DNA of 64,000 nucleotides from Candidatus Dojkabacteria bacterium (GCA_040006935.1 JBDTVZ010000001.1:18218-82217); one strand, 5' to 3'; shown: positions 18,776 to 37,790, counted from the first letter of the stretch. The notes: generated by a model from the letters alone, not told the origin. Program-made: numbers and translations.

Positions 18776-20416
18776 ATGAAATCTCGTTCAAAAACTTCAT
18801 TTCTTAAATTAGTTATCCCAGTTGTAATTATAGCAGGGATAATGCTTTTTATAACCAAAAGCAGAGCCGAAAACGACTTCAATATTCCAAGTAAGCCGAA
18901 TATTTTACAAGGCTCAGAATGGTGGAATAATGACTTTGCTTTCCGTAAAAAAGTTATTACTTCAAGTGAAATAGATCAGGTAATTAAAATCAATCATTCC
19001 CAAATGGTTATAGATAATAAATCTATCCAGGACGGCAGTGATTTAAGAGTGGTTGCATATGAAGGAACCGAATCAAAAGAAGTTCCAATGGATATTACAA
19101 ACCCAGATACATCCGAAACTTTAATAAATTTCTCAAAATCTAAAAATGTAACAGATGTATATTTATACTATGGTAATAAATCAGATTTACCTGAACCAAC
19201 GATTAGAAGCGAAGACCTCTCAACCTTAAAAGAAAATGCAAGTTTATCGGAAGAAGAAACTCCTGAGTTGCTGGTGACTACTCAAAAAAAATGGAATTTA
19301 AAGGAAAAAGATTCACAGTTAATTCTTCAAGTTGCAGACCAATTAAAGCAAGGAGATACCATTTATTATTATCTTCTTGATAATGAACAAACTCCACGGA
19401 ACATGGAAGTTCAAAATGGTTTTTCGACTATAAATCCAATTGATATTCAGCCTGGTGACCACAATATATTTCTAATCAAAAAATCAGGAGTAAATATTAC
19501 ACGTAGCAATTCTTCTAGATTTATTCTTTCCGAACCTATATATATTGCATGGACTGTTGATTGGGAAGGAATAGACCCAGGAAAACCAAATATAGAAAAT
19601 ATTTCTAAAACTGCTGTTGAGTTTAAAATTCCGATTACACATTTTTTTAGTCCAAGAACAATTATTAGTACAAAAATAACAGAACCAAGAAAAAAGGAAA
19701 TTATAAATTGGATAAAAGATAGAGTAAATAATTTTGGTGATGATCTAGCAATGAATTTACATTTTCAATTTGATTTAGTCGATGCTGCAGGAGTTGACCC
19801 AAAATATTCTGAAAAAACTTGGGATAATGGTATAAGTGGTTACGATATGCCTGGAACAGTTTACGATTATAATGAATATTTAAAAATACTAAATTGGGGA
19901 AAGCAAAAATTAATAGATGCTGGATTACCATCACCAAAAGGTTTTAGAGCAGGCGGTTGGTTTATAAATGATGATAATTTAAGAGCTGTTAAAGATGCAG
20001 GTTTTGTTTATGATTCCTCAGCAATTAAACCCACTGAGCTTGGTGAGAATAAAATGATGCAGGATTGGGAAACAACAAGTATAACCCAACCCTATAAAAT
20101 TTCTCAAAAAGATAAAAATTCTAGCGATGACCCAACCCTAGGAATTCTAGAAGTACCTATAAATGGAGGTGATACCTATATAAATTCTGCTGAGGAAATT
20201 TTACAAAATTTCAAAGATAATTATAGTTACAATACTTACTCGAATACATCGAAATTAATTGTTTATTCTTCAAGCCCAGATTGGTTTGATACTAGTAAAG
20301 ATGGTGTAGAGAATTTATTTGCAACAGTGTCAAATTACAGATATGATAGAGATAGGGGACCAGTTAAATTTATCACGCTAAATGAATGGCTTGATAAAAG
20401 TAATACAGGTAAATAG
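18776..20416 (+). CDS. secreted/anchored protein, possible DUF2341-like N-terminal and polysaccharide-deacetylase-like C-terminal regions
   Basis: N-terminal hydrophobic anchor (FLKLVIPVVIIAGIMLFI). WWNNDFAFRKKVI resembles DUF2341 starts. GFRAGGWFINDDNLRAVKDAGFVYDSS resembles CE4-type deacetylases. Both domain calls are weak. Confidence 0.5.
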   Translation: MKSRSKTSFLKLVIPVVIIAGIMLFITKSRAENDFNIPSKPNILQGSEWWNNDFAFRKKVITSSEIDQVIKINHSQMVIDNKSIQDGSDLRVVAYEGTESKEVPMDITNPDTSETLINFSKSKNVTDVYLYYGNKSDLPEPTIRSEDLSTLKENASLSEEETPELLVTTQKKWNLKEKDSQLILQVADQLKQGDTIYYYLLDNEQTPRNMEVQNGFSTINPIDIQPGDHNIFLIKKSGVNITRSNSSRFILSEPIYIAWTVDWEGIDPGKPNIENISKTAVEFKIPITHFFSPRTIISTKITEPRKKEIINWIKDRVNNFGDDLAMNLHFQFDLVDAAGVDPKYSEKTWDNGISGYDMPGTVYDYNEYLKILNWGKQKLIDAGLPSPKGFRAGGWFINDDNLRAVKDAGFVYDSSAIKPTELGENKMMQDWETTSITQPYKISQKDKNSSDDPTLGILEVPINGGDTYINSAEEILQNFKDNYSYNTYSNTSKLIVYSSSPDWFDTSKDGVENLFATVSNYRYDRDRGPVKFITLNEWLDKSNTGK

Positions 20417-20440
20417 TTTTAAACATTTATCGTTGAAAAG

Positions 20441-20899
20441 GTGATGATTAAATTTATATCAGAATCAAATATATTCGATCTTTTAAACCTGGGCAATCTT
20501 GACGAGGAGAAAAAAAACGACTTATTGCAAAACATGTTAACGATAACTCTAACGAAGAGTGTTTATAATTTCTTCGATGATACAGAGACCTCAATTGCAG
20601 AGTTAAATAGAATAGAAAAGAAAATGGATGAGGCTAAAGACGTAATTAAATTCCAAGAATTCCTACTAAAAAAATACCCTCAATTAAACGACTATATTGC
20701 AGAAGGTACCTACAGCTTTAAAAGAGATGCGTTAGTAAAACAAGTCGAGGCATATATACAAGAGTTGAAACAAGGAGAGCAAAATGAAGATACGACTTAT
20801 AAATTAAAATCTGCGGAGGATTTAGTAAAGTCCATTGATACAGAAAACGAAGAGGAATTCGAAAAGAGTTATCAAATTTATAAACAAGTAAGAAAATAA
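20441..20899 (+). CDS. small acidic helical hypothetical protein (first small gene of giant-protein operon)
   Basis: 152-aa ORF (GTG 20441 or ATG 20444). Lies 24 nt after the upstream gene and 6 nt before the giant ORF. Confidence 0.55.
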   Translation: MMIKFISESNIFDLLNLGNLDEEKKNDLLQNMLTITLTKSVYNFFDDTETSIAELNRIEKKMDEAKDVIKFQEFLLKKYPQLNDYIAEGTYSFKRDALVKQVEAYIQELKQGEQNEDTTYKLKSAEDLVKSIDTENEEEFEKSYQIYKQVRK

Positions 20900-20905
20900 A
20901 ATAAC

Positions 20906-23900
20906 ATGAATAGTGCAATTGCAAAAGCTATCGCAGGACAAGACACTCTTGTTACTCCAGCTAGATTTGATAATAATCAGCAAAAAGACAGAATGAGAAA
21001 TAAAAATGGAGCTGATGGTCGTGGTCTTGTACAAAAGTACGGTATTAATCCTACTGATTTAGCAGCGCTTGAAGCCTATGTTGATGGAAACCTACAACAA
21101 GTACAAATTATAGACCAAGACGCAAATACAATGGAAGCTGATAGATTAAATCAGTCCAGTGGTGGTGAGCAATGGCTTAGAAAACATAAAATTACTAAAT
21201 TTATTGGTAAATTTGGTAAATTTATAGCACCACAAATTGCAGGAATGGGCGTAAGAGCAGCTTTTGGAACAGTAGGTGCAACAGGTGGTCCATTAGTTGC
21301 AGGGGCAATTGGAGGACTTACAGGTGGTTTAAAAGCTGCAGTTGATATTACATTGGCAGGAAGGAATAACACAGACATTGTCGAGTTCTTTGGTAAGAAT
21401 GTAAACGTGGCTGGAGTATTTGAGCAACAGAATAGAGATAAATGGAAAGTAGATAAATTGGCAAGAGGCTGGTTTAATTGGGGAAAAAATTGGGCATTAG
21501 AACCAGTTTATAAATATCAAGAGAGAGAAGATAGGATTTTAAATTTCTTAAGCGATAAAAGGCTAGATTTTTCTAGAGAGGGATATTTCAGAGATCCAAT
21601 GACGGTATTCCCTGTAATGAAGAATCTCCCACTTTCAGATATCCAATTATTTTTGAAAGATTTGTATATACAAGGTACTCTCCTTAGTGCTGTAGGGAGC
21701 AGAAAGGATTTAACACCAGAAGTTAGAAGGATAATCCAAAATTGGATAGACTCATTTTGTGAATTACAACTAATGCTAAATGCTATTTTGTTGAATAGAG
21801 GTTTGCCTTTAACACAAATAGAAGGGATTAGGACTGATGCAACGAAAGAAATAACTTCGTTTAGATCTGCCAAAGGAGAGGCTGCATATGCTCTCAGAAG
21901 AGGCACAACTAATGCAATTCAAAGTGCTGTTTATAATGTAGCATTCCAAACCTTAGTAACAGGTGTTCAAAAATTAGTTACACACTATCAAGGTCTAGTT
22001 ACAATTAATAGAGAGTTAGTTCCAATAAATAACAATGTGGATGCAATGAGGGCAGCTAATCCTCGTTTGGATCAAATAGATCAACAGGTACAGAATTTAC
22101 AGACCCAATTACAACAGACAAACGTAGCTGGTGGGGTTACTAATGTAACCAATCAAGTAGTGCAAAATGTGGCAGGGACTGCAAGAGATAGAGCCCTTTC
22201 ACTCTTTGGTGCAGATTACTTAAATAATGCCGGAATGGGAGAAATGGGAAGGTGGGCAAGAGTTGCAGCAATACAAACTTTTCAAAATCAATATACACCT
22301 CAAGTTGAGAATTTGATTGGAACTTTATCAAGAAACACACACTTAAGCAGAGATGATATCTTAGCCTGGATAATGAATAGAGGGTCTATTGATGGAGCTT
22401 ATCAAGTAGTTGGCGGAGCTTCTATAGTAAATTTAAACGTAACTGATTTACTAACAAGAGCCATAAATGGTCAGTATAATGTTGCATCAATTATTCAAGG
22501 TGCAAATGCAAATGTAGATGCTAGGTGGTTAGATTTAATGAAAAATGGAATGGGACAAATAATTAATCAAGTAACTACTACTAATGTTGCAGGTGCTGGA
22601 TTAACAGATGCTGCACGAGCAAATATTTTTGAGCAAATTGCGAGATTATTAGCTGAGAAAGCTTTAATTGGAGAGAATATTGGGGGAGCTGAATTGCAAA
22701 GAGCAGTAGCTGCTATGGATCCTAACATTTTAAGACAGATATCAGAAGGAAGTGTAAATGTTTTGGATTACTTAATCGATACTGGGTTAATTGTTGCTGG
22801 CGGTGCAATTGGGTTTATAGGTGTTGCAGGTTCTTGGGCAGCAGAAAGTGGGGAATTAGGCACAAGAAGAACTGTTGAAGTTAGAAGAAATATCCCTAAT
22901 CCAAATACTCCTATGCCGCCACCGGTTGGGCCAAATGGTAGACCTTATCCTCAGCCTAACGCGCAACGTGCAGCAGTTTATAATGCAACGCCATATCCAC
23001 AACAAGCTGCGAATCAGCAGCCAGGATTAGCTCCTGTTCCGCAAGGAGGATTAGGTTCAGGTGTTCCAGTTTCAAGCGATGAAACGCTTCATGGTGTCAG
23101 AGCATTGGATGATGCTTCAGCTCAAACAGTCCCATCTGATTTTTTTGCTAACACAAGGCAAAATACCTCCACTCAGCCTATATTAAATAATGCTGTGCCT
23201 CAACAAAATCAACCAGTAGATCAAAATAATCTTGTAGCTAAGATTAATCAAATTATGACTGAGAATTATGACTTGCCTAGAATTATTAATGAGATAATTA
23301 ACAATCCTAGAACAATTACTTTGGACGCTGTTATCCATAACGATAATATATCGAGGCTTTTTGACAAAGCCTTGATCTCGAATTTAGGTATTAAAGAGAA
23401 AGTCTACTATTTAGGAAATGATGGACTAAAAAAAGAAAAAGATATTATGAAATTGATTATTATTAATGACCAATACAATGATATTGTGAAGGATCTAGAC
23501 GCTTGGGGATTAAGTAAAGATCAAATTATCCTTAGACGTATTGTTAATAAACCAGGTGGAGGTGAGGAGGAAGTATTCTACAATATGAAAATAAATAATA
23601 GAAATTATACAATTGAGGAAATAACTGATTCAGGTGTTGAAGTAGGTGGTATTCAATATGGAACACCAAAAGTCACTGACTTAGGCATTGGATTCAATTT
23701 ACTTAGTCAAATAGAAGAAACACAGAAATCTACATCAGTAGGAGAAAATCAAGTAGAAAATAAGGACGAAGATATTATTGCGAGATTTAATATTCCTGAT
23801 TATCCTACTGGAGCTTCTCAGGGTTATCCCGAATCTATAGCAGGAAAAGAAGCAATTATTAATAAAAATTATAAAGAGGAGTATAAATTGCAGCCATATG

Positions 23901-26900
23901 ATGGAGAAGTAGAAAAATATCCACTATTTGATAATGATTACAATGAATTTGACGGAATAATGTTACATAGATTTGAAATTGAAGGTCAAAAATTTGATTT
24001 ATTTATAACTAAAGAAGGTGCAATTTGGTATTTCGATAAAGATAATAATTTTATGAGATTAGAAAATCCTGCAAATGTAGGAGGAACTATTACTTTAGAT
24101 AACGGTGAAGCTTATGAAATAAAATTAGATGCAAATCATAATGTAAGAGTTAAGAAGAACGAAGTTGTTGCAGCACCAGATGTAATTGGTGAGAAGATAA
24201 TTGTAGATGGAGATGAAGTTATCATTAACTCATCAGAAAATTTAAGATTACTTGGCTCTGGAAATAGCTCTATCCCACTTGAATCTTTTGCGATTAAAGA
24301 TGGTAAAGGGAAAATAGAAGAAGACTCAAGGCTATTAGTAATTAATAACCAGAAGTATGTGTTCAGAGATGGGAAAATATATGAAATTAATGGAACAGAG
24401 GTAGTAGAAGATCAAGATGGAACTATCACTATTGAATCATCAAAAGAGCGAGATGTGAAAGTAAAATTATCTAACGGTAAAATAGAAGTATATGAAATTA
24501 TAAAGGGTGATCTTAAATTACCAAAATTGGAAAGAAGAGAATTCCAAGCTAACAGTGTCGAAACGAAGAAACTAAGTTCAGAAGAAAGATTGCAATCACT
24601 AAATGATCAATTAAAAGATAAAAAAATCACTATAGAAAACAAAAATGAGAGTGCAATTACTATTAGTGATTTAGAATTAACACCAGATGAAAAGGCTTTA
24701 CTCCAAGGAAGATTATCTTTGTGGTACGACAGAATTCAAGAAATCAACCCTTTAATCTTAACTGGTCCGTATGATAAAACTTTCAATTTTCAAGAGTATG
24801 GTAATGGTGAAAGTATAGCTGCTGCAATTGTAGAATCTGGTTTTGAAGGAAATAATAATAGTTTAAATCTAGTTGATTTTATAAATAACCCTGACAAATT
24901 GGATATAGCTGATGTAGAAAGAGCTTTGATTAACAAATTTGGATGGAAAGAGGAAAAACAAGCAGAAAATAGAGTGGAAATTATGCTTTATGTTTACCAT
25001 TTAGTTCATGCTGTGGAAGGTGCATTAGGTGGATATTTCGGAGTATATAATCAATTAGAGGCTCTTGATGGTAAAGATATAAAAATTGATATTCAAAATG
25101 ATTCTGGGGCAAATGCTATTCGTTTTGTAGGTAAAGATAATATTAAAGAATTAACACCAGAGAACAAGGCCTTCATTGGCGGTAGAATTACTAAATTATT
25201 TGATATTTCTAGGAAGTTGAATCCTGATATTAGCCCTGAAGACCATCAAACACTTCACTATGACTTTTCAAATGATGGTAATAGGATGCTTAATGCTATT
25301 AGAAAAATTGTTTCTAAAGAGAACGCGGGACCAATATCCTTGTTTAATCTATTAAATGAGATCGAGATTATTGATTTCGGAGAATTATTCCCAACGTTGT
25401 TTATGGAGGGTTGGAAAGACGACAACATGAATGATAATAGAGCAGCAGTTGGTTTAATGCTTTGGCATTTAGCAAATGCAATTGAGGGACAGCTAAGTGA
25501 TAATGAAGTAAAGGGCGAAGACAAAATTTTGGATGTTGACACTGAAATAAAAAAAGACAAGGAATTTGTTGTCAGATTAATCTCTAGCATAAAAGATGTC
25601 ACACCTAAATCTACCTCTGAAGAACGGCTATTCCCGATGGTATTTGAAGCGATTGGCTATAATACTGGAAATAGAGATAACCCAGATTTGCTTGTAACAG
25701 CAATTATTATGGATTCTATTGAGCATTATGCACTTCCAGGATTAGTAAATAGAATAATAGACTTAATGGATATTGATGATGTCGATAGAGAATCCGTGCG
25801 ATTAGGAATTTATACATTTATAGAGGAAAAATTATTAACTAACGATATTGCTGTAGTTCATAAGGACGATGCAAAGACTGCTTTAATTGGACTTGAATCC
25901 AGGAAAACTCTAGAGACACTAGATATTGCTTTAAGTGTCGAAGAAATAAGTAAATTAAATAAAGAAAGTAATGAAGATGAACAAACTAATAATTTAGAAG
26001 TTAACAAGTTCCCGGAGAGTATGGAACTAAACAAGGCATATGAAACTTTAATTCAATGGGATAGAAATCCTTTAAAAGTTGAAATCCCAGTAACTAATGA
26101 GCAAGGGGTAAGTTTTCAGATAAGTTTTAACCATAAAGAATTAGTACCAGCACTTAATGCAGAAGGTCGAATAATGCATAGGGAATTTAACGTTAAGAAC
26201 TCCCAAAATGTTAAGGATTATCCTACTGAGTCTGGGGAATACACGTTGATTTATTCTTTTAGTAAGGTTAAAACATCGGGAGAGGGGATTGAAAGTTTAT
26301 TAATAGAGTATAAAGTTTTAAAGAAAGAAACTCCCGATTCTAAAAATATAGATAAAGTTAAGCTACTAAGAACGATTGAAGAAAAAGAGAAAAACTTAGG
26401 AGAATTACAAGAACAATTACAATCTAATCTAATAAGTAGAGAACTTTATAATGTCAAGAGGAGAGATTTAATGTTTAAAGTAGGAAATGATTGGTTATTA
26501 GTGGGGTTAAAACGATGGCATCTTCATCATCCTGAAAAAGCAGGTACCAAGGACGAATGGGAAATAATTAACCCATACCAAAGGTATCAATTAGAGAGGC
26601 CTATTATTAAAACTAAAGATATTAATGAACCAGACTTTCTTGCCAGCCTAAGTGAGGGTAATGATCAGGTAATCAGAAATCTAGATGCTGAGAAAATAAT
26701 TGGAGAACTTAAGCCAGGAAGACAGTTTGAATCGGATGATAATATCTTTACAGTTATAGAGATTACCCCAAACGGAGTATTTAGAACAAAAAGGCAATCA
26801 AGGAAAGGGGGAATAGAAGTATCTCTAAATTTTGCAAGAGAAAATCTATTGGAATATTTTACAGAAGGAAGGTTGAGAACTATTGAAAATATTAATGTAA

Positions 26901-27463
26901 ACGAAAATAAAAAGAAAGTAGATGAAATTGTTATCTCATTAGAAAAAAATAAAGAACTAATTGAAAGATTAACTATCAATGACAGATTCAGAAGAAAAAC
27001 CACAAATACTACTTACACAATCGAAGATAATGATGGTGATAGTTTGGTAGTAATAGAAAGCACTGCTCGAACAGAAACTCCTATGTTTTTAAGAAAAAGC
27101 ATTTTGCTTGAATGGTTGCTTAACGATGATGTGGAGATGTTAGAGCCAGAAGATAATTCTGAATATGAAAAAACTGTTGAAAACTTAAAGAAAGGGGATG
27201 AATTTACCTACAACGGAAACAAGTACGTGGTTTTACCTAGTATCTCAGGTTATCGTGGGATAGTTGGCGGTAACATAGATAAGCGAAGCGATGTGAAGAG
27301 ATTTCCATCTGGGACCTTTATGAGATTTTTAAAGGAAGGAGTAGTTAAGATTGAAAGTACGAATGAAGAGATAACGCAACAAGTTGCAAAAGGAGTAAAG
27401 GAAGCTCAGAGAAGTCCAACAGCTATTCTAAAGGAAATAGCAGATACTTATGAAGATTTATAA
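20906..27463 (+). CDS. giant protein 1 (2185 aa), unknown family
   Basis: Uninterrupted 6.5-kb ORF. Gly-rich hydrophobic segments at 21221..21362 and 22772..22853, a Pro/Gln-rich linker at ~22885..23230, then a K/E/I/N-rich body with internal duplications (24780-25030 vs 25255-25500) and three C-terminal ~60-aa repeats (26702..27357). Confidence 0.8.
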   Translation: MNSAIAKAIAGQDTLVTPARFDNNQQKDRMRNKNGADGRGLVQKYGINPTDLAALEAYVDGNLQQVQIIDQDANTMEADRLNQSSGGEQWLRKHKITKFIGKFGKFIAPQIAGMGVRAAFGTVGATGGPLVAGAIGGLTGGLKAAVDITLAGRNNTDIVEFFGKNVNVAGVFEQQNRDKWKVDKLARGWFNWGKNWALEPVYKYQEREDRILNFLSDKRLDFSREGYFRDPMTVFPVMKNLPLSDIQLFLKDLYIQGTLLSAVGSRKDLTPEVRRIIQNWIDSFCELQLMLNAILLNRGLPLTQIEGIRTDATKEITSFRSAKGEAAYALRRGTTNAIQSAVYNVAFQTLVTGVQKLVTHYQGLVTINRELVPINNNVDAMRAANPRLDQIDQQVQNLQTQLQQTNVAGGVTNVTNQVVQNVAGTARDRALSLFGADYLNNAGMGEMGRWARVAAIQTFQNQYTPQVENLIGTLSRNTHLSRDDILAWIMNRGSIDGAYQVVGGASIVNLNVTDLLTRAINGQYNVASIIQGANANVDARWLDLMKNGMGQIINQVTTTNVAGAGLTDAARANIFEQIARLLAEKALIGENIGGAELQRAVAAMDPNILRQISEGSVNVLDYLIDTGLIVAGGAIGFIGVAGSWAAESGELGTRRTVEVRRNIPNPNTPMPPPVGPNGRPYPQPNAQRAAVYNATPYPQQAANQQPGLAPVPQGGLGSGVPVSSDETLHGVRALDDASAQTVPSDFFANTRQNTSTQPILNNAVPQQNQPVDQNNLVAKINQIMTENYDLPRIINEIINNPRTITLDAVIHNDNISRLFDKALISNLGIKEKVYYLGNDGLKKEKDIMKLIIINDQYNDIVKDLDAWGLSKDQIILRRIVNKPGGGEEEVFYNMKINNRNYTIEEITDSGVEVGGIQYGTPKVTDLGIGFNLLSQIEETQKSTSVGENQVENKDEDIIARFNIPDYPTGASQGYPESIAGKEAIINKNYKEEYKLQPYDGEVEKYPLFDNDYNEFDGIMLHRFEIEGQKFDLFITKEGAIWYFDKDNNFMRLENPANVGGTITLDNGEAYEIKLDANHNVRVKKNEVVAAPDVIGEKIIVDGDEVIINSSENLRLLGSGNSSIPLESFAIKDGKGKIEEDSRLLVINNQKYVFRDGKIYEINGTEVVEDQDGTITIESSKERDVKVKLSNGKIEVYEIIKGDLKLPKLERREFQANSVETKKLSSEERLQSLNDQLKDKKITIENKNESAITISDLELTPDEKALLQGRLSLWYDRIQEINPLILTGPYDKTFNFQEYGNGESIAAAIVESGFEGNNNSLNLVDFINNPDKLDIADVERALINKFGWKEEKQAENRVEIMLYVYHLVHAVEGALGGYFGVYNQLEALDGKDIKIDIQNDSGANAIRFVGKDNIKELTPENKAFIGGRITKLFDISRKLNPDISPEDHQTLHYDFSNDGNRMLNAIRKIVSKENAGPISLFNLLNEIEIIDFGELFPTLFMEGWKDDNMNDNRAAVGLMLWHLANAIEGQLSDNEVKGEDKILDVDTEIKKDKEFVVRLISSIKDVTPKSTSEERLFPMVFEAIGYNTGNRDNPDLLVTAIIMDSIEHYALPGLVNRIIDLMDIDDVDRESVRLGIYTFIEEKLLTNDIAVVHKDDAKTALIGLESRKTLETLDIALSVEEISKLNKESNEDEQTNNLEVNKFPESMELNKAYETLIQWDRNPLKVEIPVTNEQGVSFQISFNHKELVPALNAEGRIMHREFNVKNSQNVKDYPTESGEYTLIYSFSKVKTSGEGIESLLIEYKVLKKETPDSKNIDKVKLLRTIEEKEKNLGELQEQLQSNLISRELYNVKRRDLMFKVGNDWLLVGLKRWHLHHPEKAGTKDEWEIINPYQRYQLERPIIKTKDINEPDFLASLSEGNDQVIRNLDAEKIIGELKPGRQFESDDNIFTVIEITPNGVFRTKRQSRKGGIEVSLNFARENLLEYFTEGRLRTIENINVNENKKKVDEIVISLEKNKELIERLTINDRFRRKTTNTTYTIEDNDGDSLVVIESTARTETPMFLRKSILLEWLLNDDVEMLEPEDNSEYEKTVENLKKGDEFTYNGNKYVVLPSISGYRGIVGGNIDKRSDVKRFPSGTFMRFLKEGVVKIESTNEEITQQVAKGVKEAQRSPTAILKEIADTYEDL

Positions 27464-27465
27464 CT

Positions 27466-28485: not shown

Positions 28486-28505
28486 ATCTCTTCTATAGTT
28501 CTAAA

Positions 28506-31500
28506 ATGCAGTACGATGAGATTAAACAAACACAAAATAATAATCTTACCGAAATTCAAAGAGAACGTGAATTAAAAGCTGCACAACTTCGAGCACAAAA
28601 TGCTTCTACAATTTTAAACAAAAAAATTAATCGGTCTTCATTTTCTAATTCTGCTAAAGAAGTTAAACCATTTGATTATCTTGAACGGCTAGAATGTTCC
28701 ATGACATTAGATAGAGTTGATTCAGAAAGAAATGGTACTAATATCAATACTCAAATTATAAATTGTGATTACTCTACAGAAATAGATTCTAAAGGTAGAG
28801 AAATAATTAAAATGACAGTGCCCCATCGGCTGGATTTTTTAGCACTAAATTTAAACCCAGGATCAGTTTTTATTTTTGATAGGTCTAACTATAGATTGCT
28901 ATCTATAGAACAAAAAGATCAGCAGAAAGTAGTAAATTCTGTTGAAGTTTGGCCTCATGTTGAAATACTATCTATAGATAAAATACTTTTCACATTCTCA
29001 GATTTACTTAATAAAGAGAAAATCGTAGCCTTTGAAAGTTTAGAAAATAATGTAATGCGTCTCAAAAAAGGTCCTTTTGATGGCTTCCCAAATAAAATTT
29101 ATTTCCAAAAATATAACCTTGAGAACCCAATATTTATTGAAGACTATGATGAAATTAAAAAAGCCTACCATGCTCCTGGGCAAGGGTCTTTTATTGATGT
29201 TGATTATAATATGGCTATTAAAGCGTTTAACCAAGCATCGAACATATTAGAAACCGAAGACAGAACTGCTGATTTTCAATACCCAGAAGTATTAAGATTA
29301 TTTTCTAAATTAAAAATAGCATTTGCTAAAGATTTAATTCCTAATGAAAATCCTCATGACACTGTTTTTGAATTGAGATTAAGAAACGAATTAAATATTG
29401 ATGGTGTACATATTTACGCAGGGGCAGTAATGAAAATTGATGTGAATGATCCAGAATTTTTTACAATAAAGTATCCTCCTCAAAATGGTGTCCAGATTGA
29501 GTTTATAGAAATAAATGGCACAAAATTATATGCACCAGGGGAAATTTTGTGTAGAAATACCTCCGAAGATCTCCAAATAACCTCAATAAATGGTGGCCAA
29601 CTCGAGAATATGGGAAGCGAAAGAGTTATTAAAATTATAAAAGCAAATAATGGATTTATTGGCTTGGTAGCAAATGATGAAGTAATTAAATTCACGAAAG
29701 ATCATAAAGTTTTAACTTTACTAAGTAATGTGGACCCATCAGTACAAATACTAATAAGTGATATTATGAAAAATAGATACTTTTTACATGATATTTACTC
29801 TGATAATTACCTAGAAGGGGCAATTGAACTTGTAAGTAATCACACAGGTTCTCTTGCTACAATAATATTTGAAGATGAACAACCTGGGAATATAATTATT
29901 CCAAACTATCCAAACATTCATCCATCGTTACACGGTCTTGCAATAGGCCAATTTGACAGATTAATTTTAGATAAAAAAGGTGAATTTGCAATCTTTGGCG
30001 TTGCTACTGAAAGATACGATATGCATTTTCGTGGAGTATGGTACGAAAGAATAGAACGAATTTTTATAAATTTTCGAACTGGAGAGGTTAGGTTTAGGTG
30101 TGATAGCTATTTTGAAGGTGGCAAAAGATACGGTCAAACTAAGTACAGTGAGAATACTTATATTATTGTCGATAATTTAGGCCTTAAACAAACAGGAGAT
30201 GGTATATTTTCTGAAGTCGAAAACAATGTGCCAAAGGGAGATGATTATAAGGACCACATTTCAAGGACGCTTAAAATTAAAGAAATAAGAATAGGAGATA
30301 TGAGACAGTTAAATGAAGATAGGATTGATATAACTGCATCATTTGACTCAATAGTATTAAATAACCAAGAAAACCCCACATTACATAACTGGATATACGC
30401 ACAGGCTCCATTTGGAAGTATTGTTAACTTTAATAGTAAAAATTCTATAATTGAAAGCATTGAAGTACCCTACGATACCTATATAAAATCTGGTGGGATA
30501 CGCGCATCACTAGGATCTAGCTTTAAAATAAGTGGTATAAGAAAAGTTTTATTTGAGGAAGATTCTCAGAATTTTCCATTAGATGTAAAGGAATTAAAAG
30601 GTGAAATTACTATTACATTAAATAATAAAATTTATAGGGCAAAAGATATTAGTGTTAATAGTTTAGGTTTAAAATTGGACAAATTCCCTTTAATTACTTG
30701 GGAGGTTATTTACAATGGTGCTACAGAATTACCTGATGAGTTATTAGTGGAAAATAATAGTGTAAATATACCAACAAAGAACGAAATTCTTTATCTTGCA
30801 AATCGATTAACTGTGCAGGTTAATAATAGGAAACCTGAAGATGACTTTGATCTAGAACAAAATGTAAATAGTTTAATCGGGCTAACAAGATGGCTATATG
30901 AATCTGCAAATAAATTAGGTGGCCCATTCAATCTAGCGGAATGGGTTACAATCTATAAACCATTACTTTATTATTACTATAACGACCCTGAGGCAGTAAT
31001 ATTGCTAATAATGGGCTTTATACCTAATTCAAACGGTAATATAGATCCAATAGATTACATGTTTCTTTATGCAACATACCTTGAGATTTTTAAACAAAGA
31101 TATCCGGAGGTAGAAAGTGAATTAATTTTACTATTGAGTAGTTTAAACCCCGATCTTAAATTTATATATAAGAATGAAATTAAAGATATTATAAGTAATT
31201 TTGAAATACTCGAAGATGAGAATAAGCAACATTTCCTAGACGAGTTAGATAGCATAAATATGGATACGCCTAGTCATATCCCAGTCCCAGTAAGTCACTC
31301 TCAAGTAGAAGGCTTCAAAGCAGACCAATTCTCAATAGAAAAAGGTTTTCTCAAATTTAATGAAGAACCTAAAGCAATCGATCTTTTACAAAGAATAGGT
31401 AACCTTCGAGAACTTTCAACTAGCTCTGAGCTTGACAAGCAAATAGAAATAATTAAAGAAAACGGTTCGAGAATTGATATGAATGTTGTTGGTCAGATTT

Positions 31501-33941
31501 CTCAAATCCTTGAAACAATAATAGGCTTTAAGATCGAAGGTTTAGATCTAGCTAAGAACTTTGTTGTATTTGGAATGATAATAAACTTTGCAAATAACTT
31601 ACGCGAATTAAAGAACAAAAGGTCTAAAGACTCTCAAGAAGAAATAAATATTGCTATAACTGAACTGCAGAATAAAATAAATAGAATTAAATCTGGCGAA
31701 TTAACAGAAGAAGAAATGCAATTTGAAATGTCTAATGAAAATGTATTGAAGATTTTAATGCACATGACCTCCGGAACTTTACCCAAAGAATATCTAGTAT
31801 TTACAATATTGATGTTGATTACTTCTGGTGTTGAAATTGCTGGAGTTAGAAACGTTTTAAAACTTGATCAAATTATAAAAAACCAAAGAGGAGATGATAT
31901 TGGAGTTCCGTATTTAAAGTATAGAGAGGAAATACTTGAAGTAAAAGCCACAGGAAATGTGATGGCACTACAAGAAGTTATTATAAAAAACGTAAGCATG
32001 TTAATCAACTACATGAGAAATTTTCATAATTACGAGGATTACTCCGAAGATTTTTTAGTAATGTGTAAATTATTGAACCTTAAAGAAGGTGAGTTCTCTA
32101 CCAACTGTTTTGGTATAGGGCTAATTTATCAAGCCATACTTGACTTAATGATTGGTGATATTTGTGAGATTAATTATGCAACTCTCCATCACGAATTAGG
32201 TAATGATATTGAAGACTGGTTTAAAAATCTGGGTGAAATAGTTATGGCGGGTCATGCTGTATTCATTATTAAACTTCCACTTATAGATGGAGAGGAAAAT
32301 AAATATATCATTGGAGATCCACTAAGTGTGATTAACAGCTTAGCTCAAAAAAATAAAAGAAAACCTTTAGACAAACATCATAATTGCATGGTTGTAAAGG
32401 AGTCCGAACTTATGCTAGACAATGAGATTAATTCTGTTCTTGAAAATACAAAATTCGTTACTATAGATCCTAATAAAAAAATCCGAATAGTTCAGAAAGA
32501 TAATAAAGAAATACAAATGAAGATAGATCCTAATGATGTTTATCAAGTATATAAAGACAGGAATTCTATTTTAACCTATGCAATGATTAGTTCCTTCAGA
32601 GATTTAAATGGCTACTTAACAACCATAGCGCCAGATGAAGGTGAAGTATTAATGGATATGATTACAGATTCAAAATATAAAGGAGATAGAAACAAAGCAT
32701 TTGAGAAGTATATGCTTTTATATAATAGATATTCAGGATTTGAATATAGATCTACAAACTCTAATCAAGTAATAGCATCGAATATAATATTATTAAATTT
32801 TGCTCTTGAAAATGATTATTATATTGAAGCTTTGTTCCTGGCCAATGTAAATAAAATAAAATTAGCCAAACTATATCCAGACAAAGACGACTACGATGAA
32901 TCTTTAATTTTCGATACGCAAAAAGCATTTATACTTACAAAAATAGCCAATCTCGATGAGACAGAAATCCTAAAATTAATTGAAGATAAAAAATATCTTT
33001 TAAGAAAAGAAGATATTACACTTATCTGGGAAAATGTCTCCTTTATAAATTTAACATTGCGTTTATTTAATGAAACAAAAGAGGATCAAAAAAGAACTCT
33101 AAAATTACTATCTTCTGAGTCACTTTACTATTTGATTTTTGATCCACTAAGATACAATAATATCCAGGAAATGAAAGACTTATGTAAAGAGATATTAAAA
33201 GTTGCTTTGGAAAATGATTATTTACCATATTCAGCTTATATTATAGAAAAACTAGTTAAGTTAAGTCCCGAAGACGAAACTCTGAAATTAGTAGAAGATA
33301 AGATTATAAAATTCATTGCTAAAACCGATAACTATATAATACTTACACAACTAAATCCACATTTAATTTTCTCAAAATTTATAGACAAAATTCATAAAGT
33401 TTTAGAAGTTAGTTTTGAGATACCAACTATCCAATCAATTTTAAACATATTGAATGGAGTGAAGGATGATAAAGTTATTGATGATCAATACGAAAGTCTT
33501 CACAAAGTATTAAGTAGTAATCACACTGCACTTGATAGAGCTGCTTATCGACATAAAGTTGAAGAAGAAAAAAGAATAGTTGCAGCTGTAGAGGCAAACA
33601 CTCATAGAATTGAGGAGATAAATAATCAAGTAAAAACTGAAGTGAGGTCAGGAGGGCAATCCTACCAATCCCTGCATCAAGAAGAAAAACCCCTTGAACT
33701 TGGAGACAACTATATAAAAATAACTGAAGAGGCTGTTTTCGGATCGATTGATCTACTCGTGAGTAAATATGGTGAACTCTCAGGAGACATAATGGCTCTA
33801 TTTCTTCGAGGAGCTGATGAAACAGTAATTCGTCTAGCAGAGAATAATTTGAGGAAGAAAGGAATATTACTTCCATCACCCGAAAATGCAGCTAAAAGGT
33901 TACAAGGACAAAATCTCCCATTGTTACAATCGAATTCTTAA
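28506..33941 (+). CDS. giant protein 2 (1811 aa), unknown family, no obvious TM or signal peptide
   Basis: Uninterrupted 5.4-kb ORF. Candidate papain-like Cys..His..Asp arrangement at ~32100..32335. C-terminal helical repeats (ALENDYYIEALF / ALENDYLPYSAYI). Confidence 0.8.
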   Translation: MQYDEIKQTQNNNLTEIQRERELKAAQLRAQNASTILNKKINRSSFSNSAKEVKPFDYLERLECSMTLDRVDSERNGTNINTQIINCDYSTEIDSKGREIIKMTVPHRLDFLALNLNPGSVFIFDRSNYRLLSIEQKDQQKVVNSVEVWPHVEILSIDKILFTFSDLLNKEKIVAFESLENNVMRLKKGPFDGFPNKIYFQKYNLENPIFIEDYDEIKKAYHAPGQGSFIDVDYNMAIKAFNQASNILETEDRTADFQYPEVLRLFSKLKIAFAKDLIPNENPHDTVFELRLRNELNIDGVHIYAGAVMKIDVNDPEFFTIKYPPQNGVQIEFIEINGTKLYAPGEILCRNTSEDLQITSINGGQLENMGSERVIKIIKANNGFIGLVANDEVIKFTKDHKVLTLLSNVDPSVQILISDIMKNRYFLHDIYSDNYLEGAIELVSNHTGSLATIIFEDEQPGNIIIPNYPNIHPSLHGLAIGQFDRLILDKKGEFAIFGVATERYDMHFRGVWYERIERIFINFRTGEVRFRCDSYFEGGKRYGQTKYSENTYIIVDNLGLKQTGDGIFSEVENNVPKGDDYKDHISRTLKIKEIRIGDMRQLNEDRIDITASFDSIVLNNQENPTLHNWIYAQAPFGSIVNFNSKNSIIESIEVPYDTYIKSGGIRASLGSSFKISGIRKVLFEEDSQNFPLDVKELKGEITITLNNKIYRAKDISVNSLGLKLDKFPLITWEVIYNGATELPDELLVENNSVNIPTKNEILYLANRLTVQVNNRKPEDDFDLEQNVNSLIGLTRWLYESANKLGGPFNLAEWVTIYKPLLYYYYNDPEAVILLIMGFIPNSNGNIDPIDYMFLYATYLEIFKQRYPEVESELILLLSSLNPDLKFIYKNEIKDIISNFEILEDENKQHFLDELDSINMDTPSHIPVPVSHSQVEGFKADQFSIEKGFLKFNEEPKAIDLLQRIGNLRELSTSSELDKQIEIIKENGSRIDMNVVGQISQILETIIGFKIEGLDLAKNFVVFGMIINFANNLRELKNKRSKDSQEEINIAITELQNKINRIKSGELTEEEMQFEMSNENVLKILMHMTSGTLPKEYLVFTILMLITSGVEIAGVRNVLKLDQIIKNQRGDDIGVPYLKYREEILEVKATGNVMALQEVIIKNVSMLINYMRNFHNYEDYSEDFLVMCKLLNLKEGEFSTNCFGIGLIYQAILDLMIGDICEINYATLHHELGNDIEDWFKNLGEIVMAGHAVFIIKLPLIDGEENKYIIGDPLSVINSLAQKNKRKPLDKHHNCMVVKESELMLDNEINSVLENTKFVTIDPNKKIRIVQKDNKEIQMKIDPNDVYQVYKDRNSILTYAMISSFRDLNGYLTTIAPDEGEVLMDMITDSKYKGDRNKAFEKYMLLYNRYSGFEYRSTNSNQVIASNIILLNFALENDYYIEALFLANVNKIKLAKLYPDKDDYDESLIFDTQKAFILTKIANLDETEILKLIEDKKYLLRKEDITLIWENVSFINLTLRLFNETKEDQKRTLKLLSSESLYYLIFDPLRYNNIQEMKDLCKEILKVALENDYLPYSAYIIEKLVKLSPEDETLKLVEDKIIKFIAKTDNYIILTQLNPHLIFSKFIDKIHKVLEVSFEIPTIQSILNILNGVKDDKVIDDQYESLHKVLSSNHTALDRAAYRHKVEEEKRIVAAVEANTHRIEEINNQVKTEVRSGGQSYQSLHQEEKPLELGDNYIKITEEAVFGSIDLLVSKYGELSGDIMALFLRGADETVIRLAENNLRKKGILLPSPENAAKRLQGQNLPLLQSNS

Positions 33942-35911
33942 ACTTGCGGTGGAACAGCTGAAACTTCTGTAGTAACAGGTTGTTCAATAGGCTGTGCTTG
34001 AGGAGTTACATTATCTGTTGGTAGAACTGTTCCTGGTTGTTCTAATGGTGGAGCCGAAGAAATATCTAACTGATCTCCTTCTTCATTTTCTACTTTCTGT
34101 TGAAGTAACTCATTAGGGTTTGTAGTTATCAAATTATGCTCATTTTGACTTGCAACAATTTGTATAGCAACATGATTAGCCCCAGCAAAAAATAATCCTT
34201 GTCCAATTCCTGCAGACATTAAAAAAGACTTTTCACCATCTGTAAGATAGAATACTTTCTTTAATTTATCTATCGCAGCTGGTGCTTGCTTCAATAATAT
34301 CTGCATGGATGAGTTATTAATTATTGCTTTACCATAATCTGAAGCTAAGAAGTCATCAACATCTTGTGTAATAGTTGTTAGACCTAATGCATATTTTCTA
34401 GCTCTCTTAGCAATTGAGTATACAAACTTGGCAGCATCTTCGTATTGCATCATAATCCAAGCTTCATCAATTATTAATAATCTTTTCCTCTTATCTCTTT
34501 TAATCTTGGTCCAAATGTAATCAAGCATTACATACATGGCCATTGGTCTTAAATCATCAGCTAAATCACGAATTGAAAATACTGTAAATGTATTGTGAAT
34601 GTTAACCGTGGATTTCCTATCAAACACACCAGATGCGGAACCTTTTAAATATTTTTCTAATCTACGAGCCATTGAATGGGATTCATCTTCCGACATTGCA
34701 TTTAAAATCTTATACAAATCTTCTAACAAAGGAGCTTCGTTTGAATGTGTTGATGGATCGGGTGTGATACCTTTTTCTTTGTACGTTAATATTAAAGCTC
34801 TATCTAAAATTGCTGCTTCCTCTGCAGTTACTGTTCCACCCAACATCATTCTAATTAATCCAGAGAGAGTTAAAATTTTAAATCGGAGTTCATCTTCATC
34901 AGCGTTAAATATCCCAGATAATTCAAAGGGATTCAATTTCTGAGCACCGTCTTGCGAGAATGATATATATTCTCCACCAACTGCATCACATAATCTATCA
35001 AATTCTTTTTCTGGGTCTATAATAATAATGTCAATTCCAAGCATTAAGGACCTCACAGCTTCCAATTTAACTGCATAGGATTTACCAGCTCCGGATGTAG
35101 CCAAAACGACTGAGTTAGCATTAGGAAGTGAAAATCTATCGAAAATAACTAAAGAATTATTATGAAGATTAACCCCATATAAAACTCCTTTATCCATTGT
35201 TAACTCACTACTGACGAATGGGAAAGTTGTAGCAATGGCAGTAGTATCCAAGTTTCTGGTCATATTTATTTTATCAAGACCATATGGAATTGTGCTTTGG
35301 AAACATTCTTCTTGTTGAAGTGTAGCAACTTTAATAATAATTCCAATCGTTGCCATTGTGCTCTCCAGATTCTTTGAAATTTTATCTAACTCTTCCATAG
35401 TATCTGCATGCAATGTTACGTACAAGGCATATTGGAAGAATTTTTCGTTCCCAGCGGCAAGCTGTTCTTGCAAAGTTAATGCATCTTTAAGTTGTACTGC
35501 AACAATAGGATCTCCTTGTCTACCTGCTTCAATTTCAATATTTATTGTTGCCTGAAACTCTGCAATTTTTCTTTTTAAGATTTTTAATATTTCACCAGTT
35601 TCAAAAGGATAATAATAAGTGCTGATGTCTACGGGATATTCAAAGTTAATTAATGGTTCTAACCAACTAGGAGAAACAACACTAGGAAAGCCGATAGCAA
35701 AATATGATCTAAAATACTTATTCCCTATTATTAAATTACTGAAGTTAACCTCAATGGCACTTGGTGCAATAATGTCTTTAACATCAATTAATCCTTGAGC
35801 AAATTTCTGAATAGATTGGTTCTCTCGAGCCAAAGCAGCAGCTTCTTGAGGGTTTATAGGTTTTGTACCTTTTTTAGGTTTTGCGTCTGGTATTAATCCG
35901 AATAAAGCCAT
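33938..35911 (-). CDS. virB4: VirB4/TrbE-class type IV secretion ATPase (C-terminal ~3/4 of a typical VirB4)
   Basis: YFRSYFAIGFPSVVSPSWLEPL, Walker A VVLATSGAGKSYAVK, IIIDPEKEF, NPFEL, Walker B RLLIIDEAWIMM, RKYALGLTTITQDVDDF, NSSMQILLKQ. Pro/Gln-rich C-terminal tail. Confidence 0.85.
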   Translation of the reverse strand: MALFGLIPDAKPKKGTKPINPQEAAALARENQSIQKFAQGLIDVKDIIAPSAIEVNFSNLIIGNKYFRSYFAIGFPSVVSPSWLEPLINFEYPVDISTYYYPFETGEILKILKRKIAEFQATINIEIEAGRQGDPIVAVQLKDALTLQEQLAAGNEKFFQYALYVTLHADTMEELDKISKNLESTMATIGIIIKVATLQQEECFQSTIPYGLDKINMTRNLDTTAIATTFPFVSSELTMDKGVLYGVNLHNNSLVIFDRFSLPNANSVVLATSGAGKSYAVKLEAVRSLMLGIDIIIIDPEKEFDRLCDAVGGEYISFSQDGAQKLNPFELSGIFNADEDELRFKILTLSGLIRMMLGGTVTAEEAAILDRALILTYKEKGITPDPSTHSNEAPLLEDLYKILNAMSEDESHSMARRLEKYLKGSASGVFDRKSTVNIHNTFTVFSIRDLADDLRPMAMYVMLDYIWTKIKRDKRKRLLIIDEAWIMMQYEDAAKFVYSIAKRARKYALGLTTITQDVDDFLASDYGKAIINNSSMQILLKQAPAAIDKLKKVFYLTDGEKSFLMSAGIGQGLFFAGANHVAIQIVASQNEHNLITTNPNELLQQKVENEEGDQLDISSAPPLEQPGTVLPTDNVTPQAQPIEQPVTTEVSAVPPQV

Positions 35912-35926
35912 ATTTTTAATTCTTAA

Positions 35927-36601
35927 TTAGCTGGATCTAACAATTCCAGTAGAAACATCAGAATCTCTAAGATTAAGTATCTCAAGACCCAATTTATCTG
36001 GTTCGTACACAGAGTAATATAGTTTTATTAATTCATCATTTGTTAATTGTTTTGCTGCTACACCCATATTCTGATATTGTTTAATTATCGAATCCCTTTT
36101 TGGATATAACTCCTCTTTAGCCTTTTCTACAATTCTTGTTACATGGGCAATTCTTTCAGGTGTTCCAAAAGTTTCTTTAAACCAGTTATTTTTTATAACA
36201 GGTAAATTTAAACTTGGAATCACAGTATAAAATCTTTTATCTAGAATCTGAGTTGTTTGTGTTAGGTTATTTATGAAGTCCTGGTACAAAGAAACCTGTT
36301 CTGTTACAGCAGTCGAAGTAATTTTCGATTTATAACTTTCTAGAAGTTTTAAATAATTTGCAATGTCAGTTCTTTGAGTTTTAATTACAATTTGTACTGG
36401 GAAATTTGTAGCATTTAAAAATGCAGCAAAAGATCCGATTTTAGCATCTTGTTCCGGTCCATCAAGTAAATCAAAATTAAGCGAAGTAGTTTCTATCACA
36501 ATAGACACTTTTCCACTTTTCAGTACAACCATATCATCTTTAATATCTGCGATATCTAAATGCTCCTGCGTGCTAATTCTTTTTGGATCGAAAATACCCA
36601 T
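35927..36601 (-). CDS. stand-alone VirB4 N-terminal-domain-like protein (apparent split VirB4, part 1)
   Basis: TQEHLDIADIKDDMVVLKSGKVSIVIETTSLNFDLLDGPEQDAKIGSFAAFLNATNFPVQIVIKTQRTDIANYL follows my recollection of the N-terminal pattern of Gram-positive VirB4 homologues. Lies 15 nt upstream of the ATPase ORF. ATG 36601 preferred over TTG 36622. Confidence 0.5.
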   Translation of the reverse strand: MGIFDPKRISTQEHLDIADIKDDMVVLKSGKVSIVIETTSLNFDLLDGPEQDAKIGSFAAFLNATNFPVQIVIKTQRTDIANYLKLLESYKSKITSTAVTEQVSLYQDFINNLTQTTQILDKRFYTVIPSLNLPVIKNNWFKETFGTPERIAHVTRIVEKAKEELYPKRDSIIKQYQNMGVAAKQLTNDELIKLYYSVYEPDKLGLEILNLRDSDVSTGIVRSS

Positions 36602-36761
36602 AATACAATTAAAAGTTCTCAATTAAAAATTAAAAGATTTCTCCTTCAACTATAACAGTATATAGTAAATAGCTGAAAGGATACAATAGGAAATTATTAA
36701 GGACCTATAGCATTAGTCAATAGAAGTTAATCAAAGAATCTAAAAATTTGGGACTGGTTAT

Positions 36762-37383: not shown

Positions 37384-37392
37384 AACTATTAT

Positions 37393-37463
37393 GGACCGCC
37401 GAACTATTGCGCGAGAATTGGCGGTATGACCTCACCCTAACCCTCTCCTTGAAAGGAGAGGGA
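37393..37463 (+). repeat. GC-rich two-hairpin dispersed repeat, copy A
   Basis: GGACCGCC-loop-GGCGGTATGACCTCACCCTAACCCTCTCCTTGAAAGGAGAGGG. Homologous copies at 46885..46956 and 62216..62288 (opposite orientation) and a diverged copy at 63673..63764. Confidence 0.8.
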
Positions 37464-37700
37464 ATTGGTCCCTCTTGTAATGACAAGTGCACCTGAGATT
37501 CATAAGGTACACAGATTTACCCTGTCGAAGGCATGGTCTGCGCCCCTGTTATTCGTATGGGGTCCAGCCACCTGCCTGACTGCGCACACAGGCACGGTGA
37601 CTGGACCTTCATTAAGTGCCAAGTTAAAGAGTGTTGTAACATCATGCAGTAATAAACTGCCACGATCAAAAGATGAGGTGGTAAGGTCAACATAAAACTA
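37464..37700. ncRNA. GC-rich structured non-coding block (candidate RNA or element remnant, unknown class)
   Basis: Visibly GC-rich in an AT-rich genome. Near-perfect long hairpin GGTCCAGCCACCTGCCTG-actgcgcaca-CAGGCACGGTGACTGGACC, plus smaller hairpins (CCCC...GGGG, GGTA...TACC). The 76-aa ORF here has no protein-like features. Confidence 0.3.
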
Positions 37701-37742
37701 AAGCTAATAAATTCGCTAAGATTTATAGCAGTATAGCAATAA

Positions 37743-37770: not shown

Positions 37771-37790
37771 TTTAAACTTCTAAAAAGAAA

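Follow-up and report, generated by a model that had tools for sequence, protein, structure and literature searches.

A 64,000-nucleotide stretch of Candidatus Dojkabacteria bacterium DNA (GCA_040006935.1 JBDTVZ010000001.1:18218-82217), referred to below as the window, contains two giant genes, here called G1 and G2, the second of which converges on a gene for a VirB4-family ATPase of a type IV secretion system (T4SS). On balance it is probable that the four genes p152-G1-p339-G2 (the small genes, like p546 upstream of them, are named after the lengths of their products in amino acids, aa) constitute a lineage-specific accessory island of host-interaction factors and are not parts of the T4SS machine. 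Two back-to-back things of different age and status would meet at this junction: the accessory island on the plus strand and, on the minus strand, a conserved split ATPase, in which a TrsD-like protein and VirB4 would form the energizing ATPase of the chromosomal, non-conjugative T4SS of Patescibacteria, present in Dojkabacteria as an isolated two-gene unit. The secure part of the result is that the ATPase unit belongs as an ordinary member to an already published system, that the giants lie outside the machine, and that they make up a fast-evolving orphan island restricted to a narrow clade. The giants represent two new orphan families, that of G2 counting two members among 1.84 billion representatives and that of G1 a single one so far, and G2 adds one conserved enzyme-like core. 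The genome seems to be of the reduced, episymbiont type and the island one of its ordinary flexible regions; nothing in the analysis points to a system of a new kind.

The slot between virB4 and tgt in related genomes

The VirB4 protein of the window was scanned against one genome per GTDB species, which gave 54 loci, and against JGI metagenomes, which gave 31 more; in these other genomes 10 kb on each side of virB4 were examined, and all five plus-strand proteins were compared by tblastn and phmmer with the 54, later 86, loci. Nearly all of the 54 VirB4 relatives from GTDB are labeled as Patescibacteria (Candidate Phyla Radiation, CPR) or unclassified, and three carry other labels. Dojkabacteria-type loci with at least 2 kb of sequence downstream of virB4 were regarded as informative (n = 31). 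In 29 of these, where VirB4 is 72-86% identical to that of the window, no giant adjoins virB4 and no homologue of p152, G1, p339 or G2 is found in the region examined, housekeeping genes or other small ORFans being carried beside virB4 instead. A convergent open reading frame (ORF) of at least 700 aa adjoins virB4 in the other two, L001 (VirB4 90%) and L055 (89%), which are the informative loci of highest VirB4 identity. The only matches to the five proteins across the fetched loci are to p546 in L056 and to G2 and p339 in L055. Since 29 of 31 informative loci keep VirB4 without a giant, the giants can hardly be structural T4SS parts, and because the genes are convergent they are not co-transcribed with virB4; the structural half of the original prediction, in which the giants were components of a VirB4-powered apparatus, fails on both the distribution and the gene orientation. 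Co-occurrence of giants with VirB4 in synteny is seen in the closest clade (VirB4 at least 89% identical, n = 3 including the window), where the end of the giant lies -4 to +31 nt from the virB4 stop codon in all three informative genomes (the window, L001, and L055), and does not extend to the 29 loci at 72-86%. The L001 ORF convergent on virB4 encodes at least 745 aa and ends at the contig edge, 2.2 kb into the giant; BLASTP and a hidden Markov model (HMM) of the G1 repeat detected no similarity between its product and G1, G2, or the G2 relative P0003 described below. A module common to the L001 giant and G1 was suggested by one BLASTP segment (E 0.002) and was rejected, as a second BLASTP did not reproduce the segment and the G1-repeat HMM missed it.

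The virB4-tgt gap, an interval of 15 kb in the window, is a hot spot of gene content among related genomes. L010 and L026 (VirB4 82% identical), collinear with the window to either side, have a single ORFan in the slot (p128-p103-TrsD-VirB4-ORFan-tgt-pheS), an IS200-type transposase is found at the equivalent position in L011, and in L056 (VirB4 86%) the slot is occupied by a p546 homologue convergent on virB4 (TrsD-VirB4 >< p546 homologue-tgt). As this homologue is alone between virB4 and tgt, p546 is a backbone gene of the slot and p152-G1-p339-G2 the added module. The island (20441-33941, plus strand) would then have been placed in the convergent gap between p546 and virB4 as two units, each consisting of a small partner and a giant protein. 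The contigs of the closest relatives all break in this region, inside virB4 in L023, at the virB4 start in L086, and inside the giant in L001, with L055 being a fragment, which suggests population- or strain-level heterogeneity that defeats short-read assembly.

The slot ORFan of L010 (11866-13341, minus strand) encodes an acidic protein of 492 aa for which Pfam gives a weak SseC-like match (E 0.03), and that of L026 (11883-12719, plus strand) a protein of 279 aa in which a Gly-rich hydrophobic hairpin recalls aa 95-150 of G1. The L026 ORFan was considered as a relative of the G1 N-terminus, both having a Gly-rich hairpin after 'KITK', but was rejected because the BLASTP comparison was not significant. 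At the tgt end of the slot in the window, a 248-aa ORFan (16687-17433, plus strand) shares 51 nt with the 3' end of tgt. It matches no family, neither of the collinear genomes L010 and L026 has a homologue, and it is either spurious or one more accessory gene, bordering the variable region.

The divergence of the giants can be gauged from the one relative, P0003 (1796 aa, E 1.9e-211), that was obtained for G2 in an exhaustive HMMER search of aa 612-1811 against the 1.84 billion representatives; a JGI metagenome scan with the G2 family gave no relative. P0003, whose alignment with G2 spans both proteins entirely (32% identity), derives from a single 6,751-bp Logan contig (L055) of run SRR28413659, where a p339-like ORF precedes the G2 homologue and the 3' part of virB4 (89% identical) follows 8 nt on, on the opposite strand. 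By virtue of this layout the p339-G2 unit and its convergent position relative to virB4 are kept in a second genome, and the sole G2 homologue is thus again found beside virB4; giant homologues lying commonly away from VirB4, which would have spoken against a linkage, were not seen. The upstream ORF of L055 is 25% identical to aa 210-337 of p339 over 130 aa (E 4e-4), consistent with p339 being a weakly conserved partner of G2. On the L055 contig, then, G2 (32%) and p339 (~25%) are set against VirB4 at 89%, and 19 other ortholog comparisons of the window with L001 or L023 (VirB4 90-93%) gave identities of 48-93%; by these comparisons the giants diverge far faster than their neighbors. Most likely they serve an episymbiont as strain- or species-specific host-interaction factors, at the surface, in attachment, or as effectors, and are under diversifying or relaxed selection, G1 probably being membrane-anchored and G2 probably having a hydrolase-type active site in its conserved core.

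Anatomy of the plus-strand block and of the TrsD-VirB4 pair

The plus-strand genes p546-p152-G1-p339-G2 are separated by spacers of 24, 6, 2, and 20 nt (Table 1), and the ORF list reproduces all of the sizes and the tight packing (2-24 nt) originally described; the giants account for 18.7% of the window ((6558+5436)/64000), which agrees with the earlier estimate of about 19%. ORFs of 5.4-6.6 kb cannot arise by chance in DNA of 32% GC and G2 has a full-length homologue, so that G1 and G2 are real genes. Where G2 meets virB4, the TAA at 33939-33941 is the stop codon of G2 and the TTA at 33938-33940 is the reverse complement of that of virB4; the sharing of TTAA, as predicted, can be read directly in the sequence. 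A terminator scan of this junction found no terminator-like hairpin. Because the stop codons overlap and no terminator lies between the convergent units, transcription of either unit must, on this layout, enter the other in antisense, and the expression of the G2-side and virB4-side units may be subject to mutual interference.

Table 1. Positions of the genes and gene segments discussed, numbered from the first nucleotide of the window.
Feature	Position	Strand	Description or basis
p546	18776-20416	+	546-aa membrane-anchored or secreted protein
p152	20441-20899	+	152-aa small acidic protein, 6 nt upstream of G1
G1	20906-27463	+	2185-aa giant; orphan (provisional)
G1 strongest hydrophobic, glycine-rich, transmembrane-like segment, aa 620-646, LIDTGLIVAGGAIGFIGVAGSWAA	22763-22843	+	Kyte-Doolittle 19-aa window peak 1.89
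G1 Pro/Gln-rich linker, ~aa 655-780	22868-23245	+	Read from translation
G1 tandem duplication of ~170-aa module, aa 1223-1402 and 1392-1567	24572-25606	+	Tile self-alignment
p339	27466-28485	+	339-aa protein; 2 nt after G1, 20 nt before G2
G2	28506-33941	+	1811-aa giant; family of two members
G2 conserved core, aa ~950-1300	31353-32405	+	Conservation profile against P0003
G2 invariant Cys1201 (TNCFGIGLI)	32106-32108	+	Invariant in 2 sequences
G2 invariant His1250 (GHA)	32253-32255	+	Invariant in 2 sequences
G2 invariant Asp1271 (IIGDPLSVI)	32316-32318	+	Invariant in 2 sequences
TTAA, overlapping stop codons of G2 (+) and virB4 (-)	33938-33941	both	Sequence and terminator scan
VirB4-family T4SS ATPase, 657 aa, monoderm MPF_FATA / CD1110 type	33938-35911	-	NCBIfam conju_CD1110, PDB 4AG5
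TrsD-like protein, 231 aa, equivalent of the detached VirB4 N-terminal domain	35927-36622	-	NCBIfam TrsD, VirB4_plasma

None of the five plus-strand proteins matches Pfam or NCBIfam at a curated cut-off or at E <0.005, the best E in PHROGs is 0.079, and PADLOC gives nothing; p546, G1, and G2, the three proteins searched against PDB sequences, have no match there below E 0.9. That neither giant belongs to a known family, as had been claimed, therefore stands for Pfam and NCBIfam scans of the full proteins and of tiles, and no adhesin, RHS, or toxin family was recognized in either by Pfam, NCBIfam, or PADLOC. The description of p546 as anchored or secreted is in keeping with its one N-terminal hydrophobic segment (aa 9-27). 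Its L056 homologue, 44% identical over 535 aa, matches Pfam DUF2334 under the cut-off (E 1e-4, 22.4 bits against 26) and p546 of the window has no Pfam or NCBIfam match, DUF2334 included; p546 possibly has the DUF2334/NodB-like fold of an extracytoplasmic carbohydrate esterase. The predicted acidity of p152 is confirmed by its composition (D+E 20.4% versus K+R 14.5%), and its single-sequence AlphaFold2 (AF2) model is all helix at a mean predicted local distance difference test (pLDDT) score of just 57. Searches of Pfam, NCBIfam, PHROGs, and PADLOC found no credible family match for p152 (best Pfam E 0.007, under the cut-off) or for p339 (best Pfam E 0.024, under the cut-off). A possible role of p152 is that of a partner or chaperone of G1.

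The translation of G1 contains no Sec signal peptide. In addition to the segment listed in Table 1, a Gly-rich hydrophobic stretch is found at ~aa 100-150, and it is probably through these glycine-rich hydrophobic segments that G1 sits in the membrane. The two copies of the tandem module have self-alignment scores of 76 and 63, versus a shuffled maximum of 49, and are 28% identical; a DNA direct repeat (24673 and 25147, spacing 474 nt) also lies inside the gene. G1 had no match in Pfam, NCBIfam, PDB, PHROGs, PADLOC, phage, plasmid, or viral searches, and a word-index search of 5.8 billion clusters retrieved G1 itself (ABI721_00240, hypothetical protein) and nothing else; G2 too is annotated at NCBI as a hypothetical protein, the contig of both measuring 516,739 bp.

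G2 likewise lacks a Sec signal peptide in its translation. Its word-index search returned only itself, and the same search with the G2 and P0003 alignment returned only the query. Between G2 and P0003, identity stays at 12-30% through much of the N-terminal half, rises to 50-64% at aa 1050-1300, and is 64% at aa 1201-1250. Cys1201, His1250, and Asp1271, invariant in both proteins, are a possible papain/transglutaminase-like catalytic triad; in a two-sequence AF2 model of the core (pLDDT 40), a helix begins at the Cys and a strand at the His. The motif LPSPE-A...PLL in the C-terminal tail is conserved inside a poorly conserved region.

The minus-strand ATPase had been called an unmistakable VirB4/TrbE protein, and its identity as a VirB4 is upheld by its match to NCBIfam NF045971 conju_CD1110 (E 4.8e-118, 395.5 bits, cut-off 325) and to the VirB4 C-terminal domain in PDB 4AG5 (E 1.7e-45; TrwK, E 1e-06), and by the presence in its translation of all the motifs quoted, ATSGAGKS (Walker A), LLIIDEAW (Walker B), and TQDVDDF. 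On the VirB4_plasma model (894 positions) the 657-aa protein covers 281-893, the VirB4 N-terminal domain being absent from this polypeptide as the alignment starts at 281, and the 231-aa protein covers 110-279 (E 1e-9); the latter also matches NCBIfam NF041427 TrsD under the cut-off (E 2.5e-6). Because the two proteins match consecutive stretches of one VirB4 model, the two genes encode a split VirB4, as in TrsD/TrsE systems, and the pair can be assigned, from its sequence relationships, to the published chromosomal, relaxase-less Patescibacteria T4SS as an ordinary member. Exact-protein look-ups of the window VirB4 and of G2 found nothing on record.

VirB4 is 72-94% identical in 39 Dojkabacteria-type loci, and a TrsD homologue (56-87% identity) is encoded directly upstream of virB4 in every Dojkabacteria-type locus that reaches that far (VirB4 72-93%). 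In other Dojkabacteria loci the neighbors of virB4 include genes for UvrA, Mfd, DsbA, a tRNA methyltransferase, M16 and M42 peptidases, MurG, DnaE, and an IS200 transposase, and in the window, too, virB4 is flanked by housekeeping genes, which the collinear genomes have kept. All Dojkabacteria-type loci fetched have the TrsD-VirB4 pair isolated in such surroundings, so that this arrangement is the class-wide norm and is not peculiar to the window. Pfam and NCBIfam scans of most other window ORFs found only housekeeping genes and no relaxase, type IV coupling protein (T4CP), VirB6, VirB3/PrgI, VirB2, or VirB1 family, in agreement with the earlier view of an isolated VirB4 module lacking a relaxase, VirD4, VirB6, pilin, and VirB1; within the 64-kb window there is no relaxase or VirD4/TcpA-type coupling protein linked to virB4, so the verdict that this is not a conjugative element holds over that span. 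Large ORFs upstream of virB4 in L004 and L006-L008 were considered as T4SS genes and discarded, since a scan of L007 identified UvrA, Mfd, DsbA, and a tRNA methyltransferase; the ORFs of L004, L006, and L008 have the same sizes and order as those of L007. In L083 (JGI Ga0207686_10145015) a VirB4 fragment (2-1646, 94% identical) ends at residue 582 beside high-GC ORFs unlike those of Dojkabacteria, so that either the contig is chimeric or foreign DNA has inserted into the 3' end of virB4.

A VirB4 clade confined to Patescibacteria and akin to the MPF_FATA class of monoderms, chromosomal and usually without a relaxase, has been described (Quinonero-Coronel et al. 2025, PMC12102498) and is also covered in a FEMS review (PMC12857230). 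TrsD is the component most commonly found with this VirB4, 1,664 of 2,272 homologues adjoining virB4, and the description makes no mention of giant neighbors, 'giant' and 'large protein' each occurring 0 times (PMC12102498). The window shares with this clade an MPF_FATA-type VirB4, a TrsD-like gene directly upstream, a chromosomal location, and the lack of a relaxase nearby, the last two being the grounds on which a non-conjugative role is presumed; it differs in that VirB3/PrgI, VirB6, a VirB2 array, a VirB1-like hydrolase, and a T4CP are unrecognized within 64 kb. The MPF_FATA prototype, TrsD-TrsE of the staphylococcal plasmids pGO1 and pSK41, resembles the pair in that a small homologue of the VirB4 N-terminus is encoded just before VirB4 (PMC12102498), but the plasmid systems serve conjugation and come with a complete trs operon, a relaxase, and a T4CP, whereas here the pair stands alone among housekeeping genes. 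In the one cultivated Patescibacteria species tested, Southlakia epibionticum (strain ML1), the T4SS is essential (Wang et al. 2023, as cited in PMC12102498; PMC12857230; PMC11665869); the two reviews describe its role and substrates as unknown, the PNAS perspective terming the role 'completely unknown', and effector delivery has been proposed (PMC11665869).

Close to the pair, a 121-aa protein (37791-38156, minus strand) with a signal peptide, two hydrophobic helices, and a Pfam PLDc_N match (E 1.5e-6) is kept near TrsD-virB4 in L001, L023, and L086 (57-65% identity); it is not a recognized T4SS pilin, though similar in size and layout. Next to it, the ORF-free interval 37384-37790 (~400 nt) has 43% GC versus a background of ~32% and contains the perfect hairpin CCCTCTCC-TTGAAA-GGAGAGGG. 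It matches no Rfam family at gathering score or E <0.1, and blastn found no counterpart among the fetched loci, even in L001 and L023, where the flanking genes are conserved; it may represent a lineage-specific noncoding RNA or a relic.

Origin and role of the island

Codon usage points to an island that is native and long resident in the lineage: its genes have a GC content at third codon positions (GC3) of 0.22 and codon-frequency correlations (r) of 0.91-0.945, the short p152 excepted (0.76), in a background range of 0.76-0.95, with the giants at 0.94-0.945 and G1 alone at GC3 0.220 versus 0.225 for the background (r = 0.94). This native usage tells against the block being cargo of a mobile element, a prophage remnant, a defense system, or a polymorphic-toxin cassette, as do borders devoid of integrase, transposase, tRNA, and flanking direct or inverted repeats, the lack of relatives of the island proteins in PHROGs, PADLOC, 50,697 phage records, 72,556 plasmids, and IMG/VR, and the lack of RHS, LXG, adhesin, or toxin domains. 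Phage, mobile-element, and defense readings were rejected on these negative results of PHROGs, PADLOC, phage and plasmid tblastn, IMG/VR, and the border repeats, and a mobile origin is very improbable even though the block is an insertion relative to collinear genomes, in a slot of variable content that holds a transposase in L011. Smaller still is the chance that a VirB4-powered surface apparatus has the giants among its structural components, a reading that the distribution essentially refutes. The adjacency to virB4 and the overlap of stop codons would suit such components, and the hydrophobic segments and Pro/Gln-rich linker of G1 could span the envelope, but VirB4 and TrsD are conserved at 72-86% in 29 loci that have no giant or island-gene homologue within 10 kb, partners of an ATPase are not expected to be 32% identical or to be replaced while the ATPase stays at 89-90%, and the hydrophobic segments of G1 number at most two or three, unlike those of the polytopic VirB6.

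The giants might instead be lineage-specific effector substrates of the Patescibacteria T4SS, with p152 and p339 as chaperones or adaptors, VirB4 and TrsD powering export to the surface or to a host bacterium, and the slot serving as a variable effector locus. This would be consistent with the position of a giant beside the virB4 stop codon in three of three closest-clade genomes although the giants differ, with the renewed adjacency of the sole G2 homologue, and with the lack of a Sec signal in both giants, an extracellular role for which would need a dedicated route; a small protein precedes each giant (p152 acidic and, at low confidence, predicted to be helical), G2 has an enzyme-like core and a conserved tail motif, and substrates of the essential T4SS have yet to be named in the literature, where effector delivery is on record as a proposal (PMC11665869). 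However, the genes are convergent and so not co-transcribed with virB4, the linkage (n = 3, one narrow clade) may be simply inherited, the 29 other Dojkabacteria-type virB4 loci have no giants, no T4CP or other T4SS gene was recognized in the window, the slot ORFans of L010 and L026 are unrelated, and monoderm T4SS effectors have no known secretion signal that could be checked. We consider this role unlikely; were the giants T4SS cargo, concrete substrate candidates would be at hand together with a testable rule, to look in the variable slot beside virB4. The bolder proposal that the slot is a hypervariable effector locus, with G1 and G2 and their small partners as the first candidate substrates and a turnover reflecting host-range arms races, is likewise unlikely. 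A cytoplasmic or membrane-associated scaffold, such as an attachment-organelle cytoskeleton (cf. the Mycoplasma HMW proteins), with the adjacency to virB4 being coincidental, is an equally doubtful identity for the giants. Their lack of signal peptides, great length, internal duplications, and C-terminal repeats that are probably helical, and the Pro/Gln-rich region of G1, would fit a scaffold, as would the positive-inside rule, by which the hydrophobic segments of G1 would place its C-terminal 1500 aa in the cytoplasm; but class-wide presence would then be expected, whereas the giants are confined to a narrow clade and replaced in L001, and the invariant Cys/His/Asp core suggests an enzyme instead.

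Several points weigh against the accessory island of host-interaction factors preferred here. All three informative closest-clade members have a giant convergent on virB4, which a pure hot-spot view does not predict and which could reflect a functional tie to the T4SS; for a linkage with n = 3, in one narrow clade and a variable slot, common descent together with an insertion hot spot explains the adjacency as well as a functional link does. Homologues of the island genes could lie elsewhere in the genomes compared, beyond the 10 kb examined. The orphan status of G1 is provisional, and undetected relatives may exist, because G1 was searched with the word-index tool only, which missed the 32%-identical P0003 although it is present in the same collection. 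The functional interpretation derives from sequence alone and the AF2 models are of low quality (pLDDT 40 for the G2 core, 57 for p152); for the G2 core, Pfam at E up to 10 and a PDB profile search gave no peptidase, and Foldseek gave nothing below E 0.5 with a model too poor for this result to count.

Comparable arrangements are known from other systems. Type VIIb loci of firmicutes have variable effector modules downstream of essC, encoding LXG toxins with small helical partners. As in these modules, a hypervariable block adjoins the gene of a conserved secretion ATPase and contains large signal-less proteins each encoded after a small protein, helical in the type VIIb case; the secretion system is a different one, however, and type VIIb modules lie on the essC strand and contain LXG/WXG domains and immunity genes, none of which is present in the island, where the giants are convergent on virB4. 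With the flexible islands and giant orphans of ultra-small, host-dependent prokaryotes, G1 and G2 have in common that they are huge, lineage-restricted, fast-evolving, and of unknown fold, that they are presumed to act in host contact, and that they occupy a large share of a reduced genome; they differ in that they share no domains with them, lack a signal peptide, each follow a small partner gene, and keep a fixed position relative to virB4. The term 'giant proteins' is reportedly used in a paper on Omnitrophota (PMC10066038).

Other genes of the window

Three tandem ORFs of ~160 aa at 13258-14800 were considered as a pilin array and rejected, as their products have no hydrophobic segments and resemble cytoplasmic paralogues. 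These paralogues (minus strand; 163, 166, and 156 aa) have the N-terminal motif L-x-L-I-x-D-x-x-R-R/K-x-L-A-E in common and no match in Pfam or NCBIfam. A 339-aa protein encoded at 52201-53220 (plus strand) would be a BclA/exosporium-like collagen filament protein, having membrane segments at its N-terminus, repeats of the collagen triple-helix type (Pfam E 1e-13), and the C-terminal domain of BclA (E 5.5e-11). A sortase-domain protein (60719-62134, minus strand; Pfam E 5e-12) is encoded beside a pair of 92-aa proteins that are both hydrophobic near the N-terminus; one of the pair has a C-terminal hydrophobic tail ending in KNKLKK and may represent a sortase substrate with no canonical LPXTG motif.

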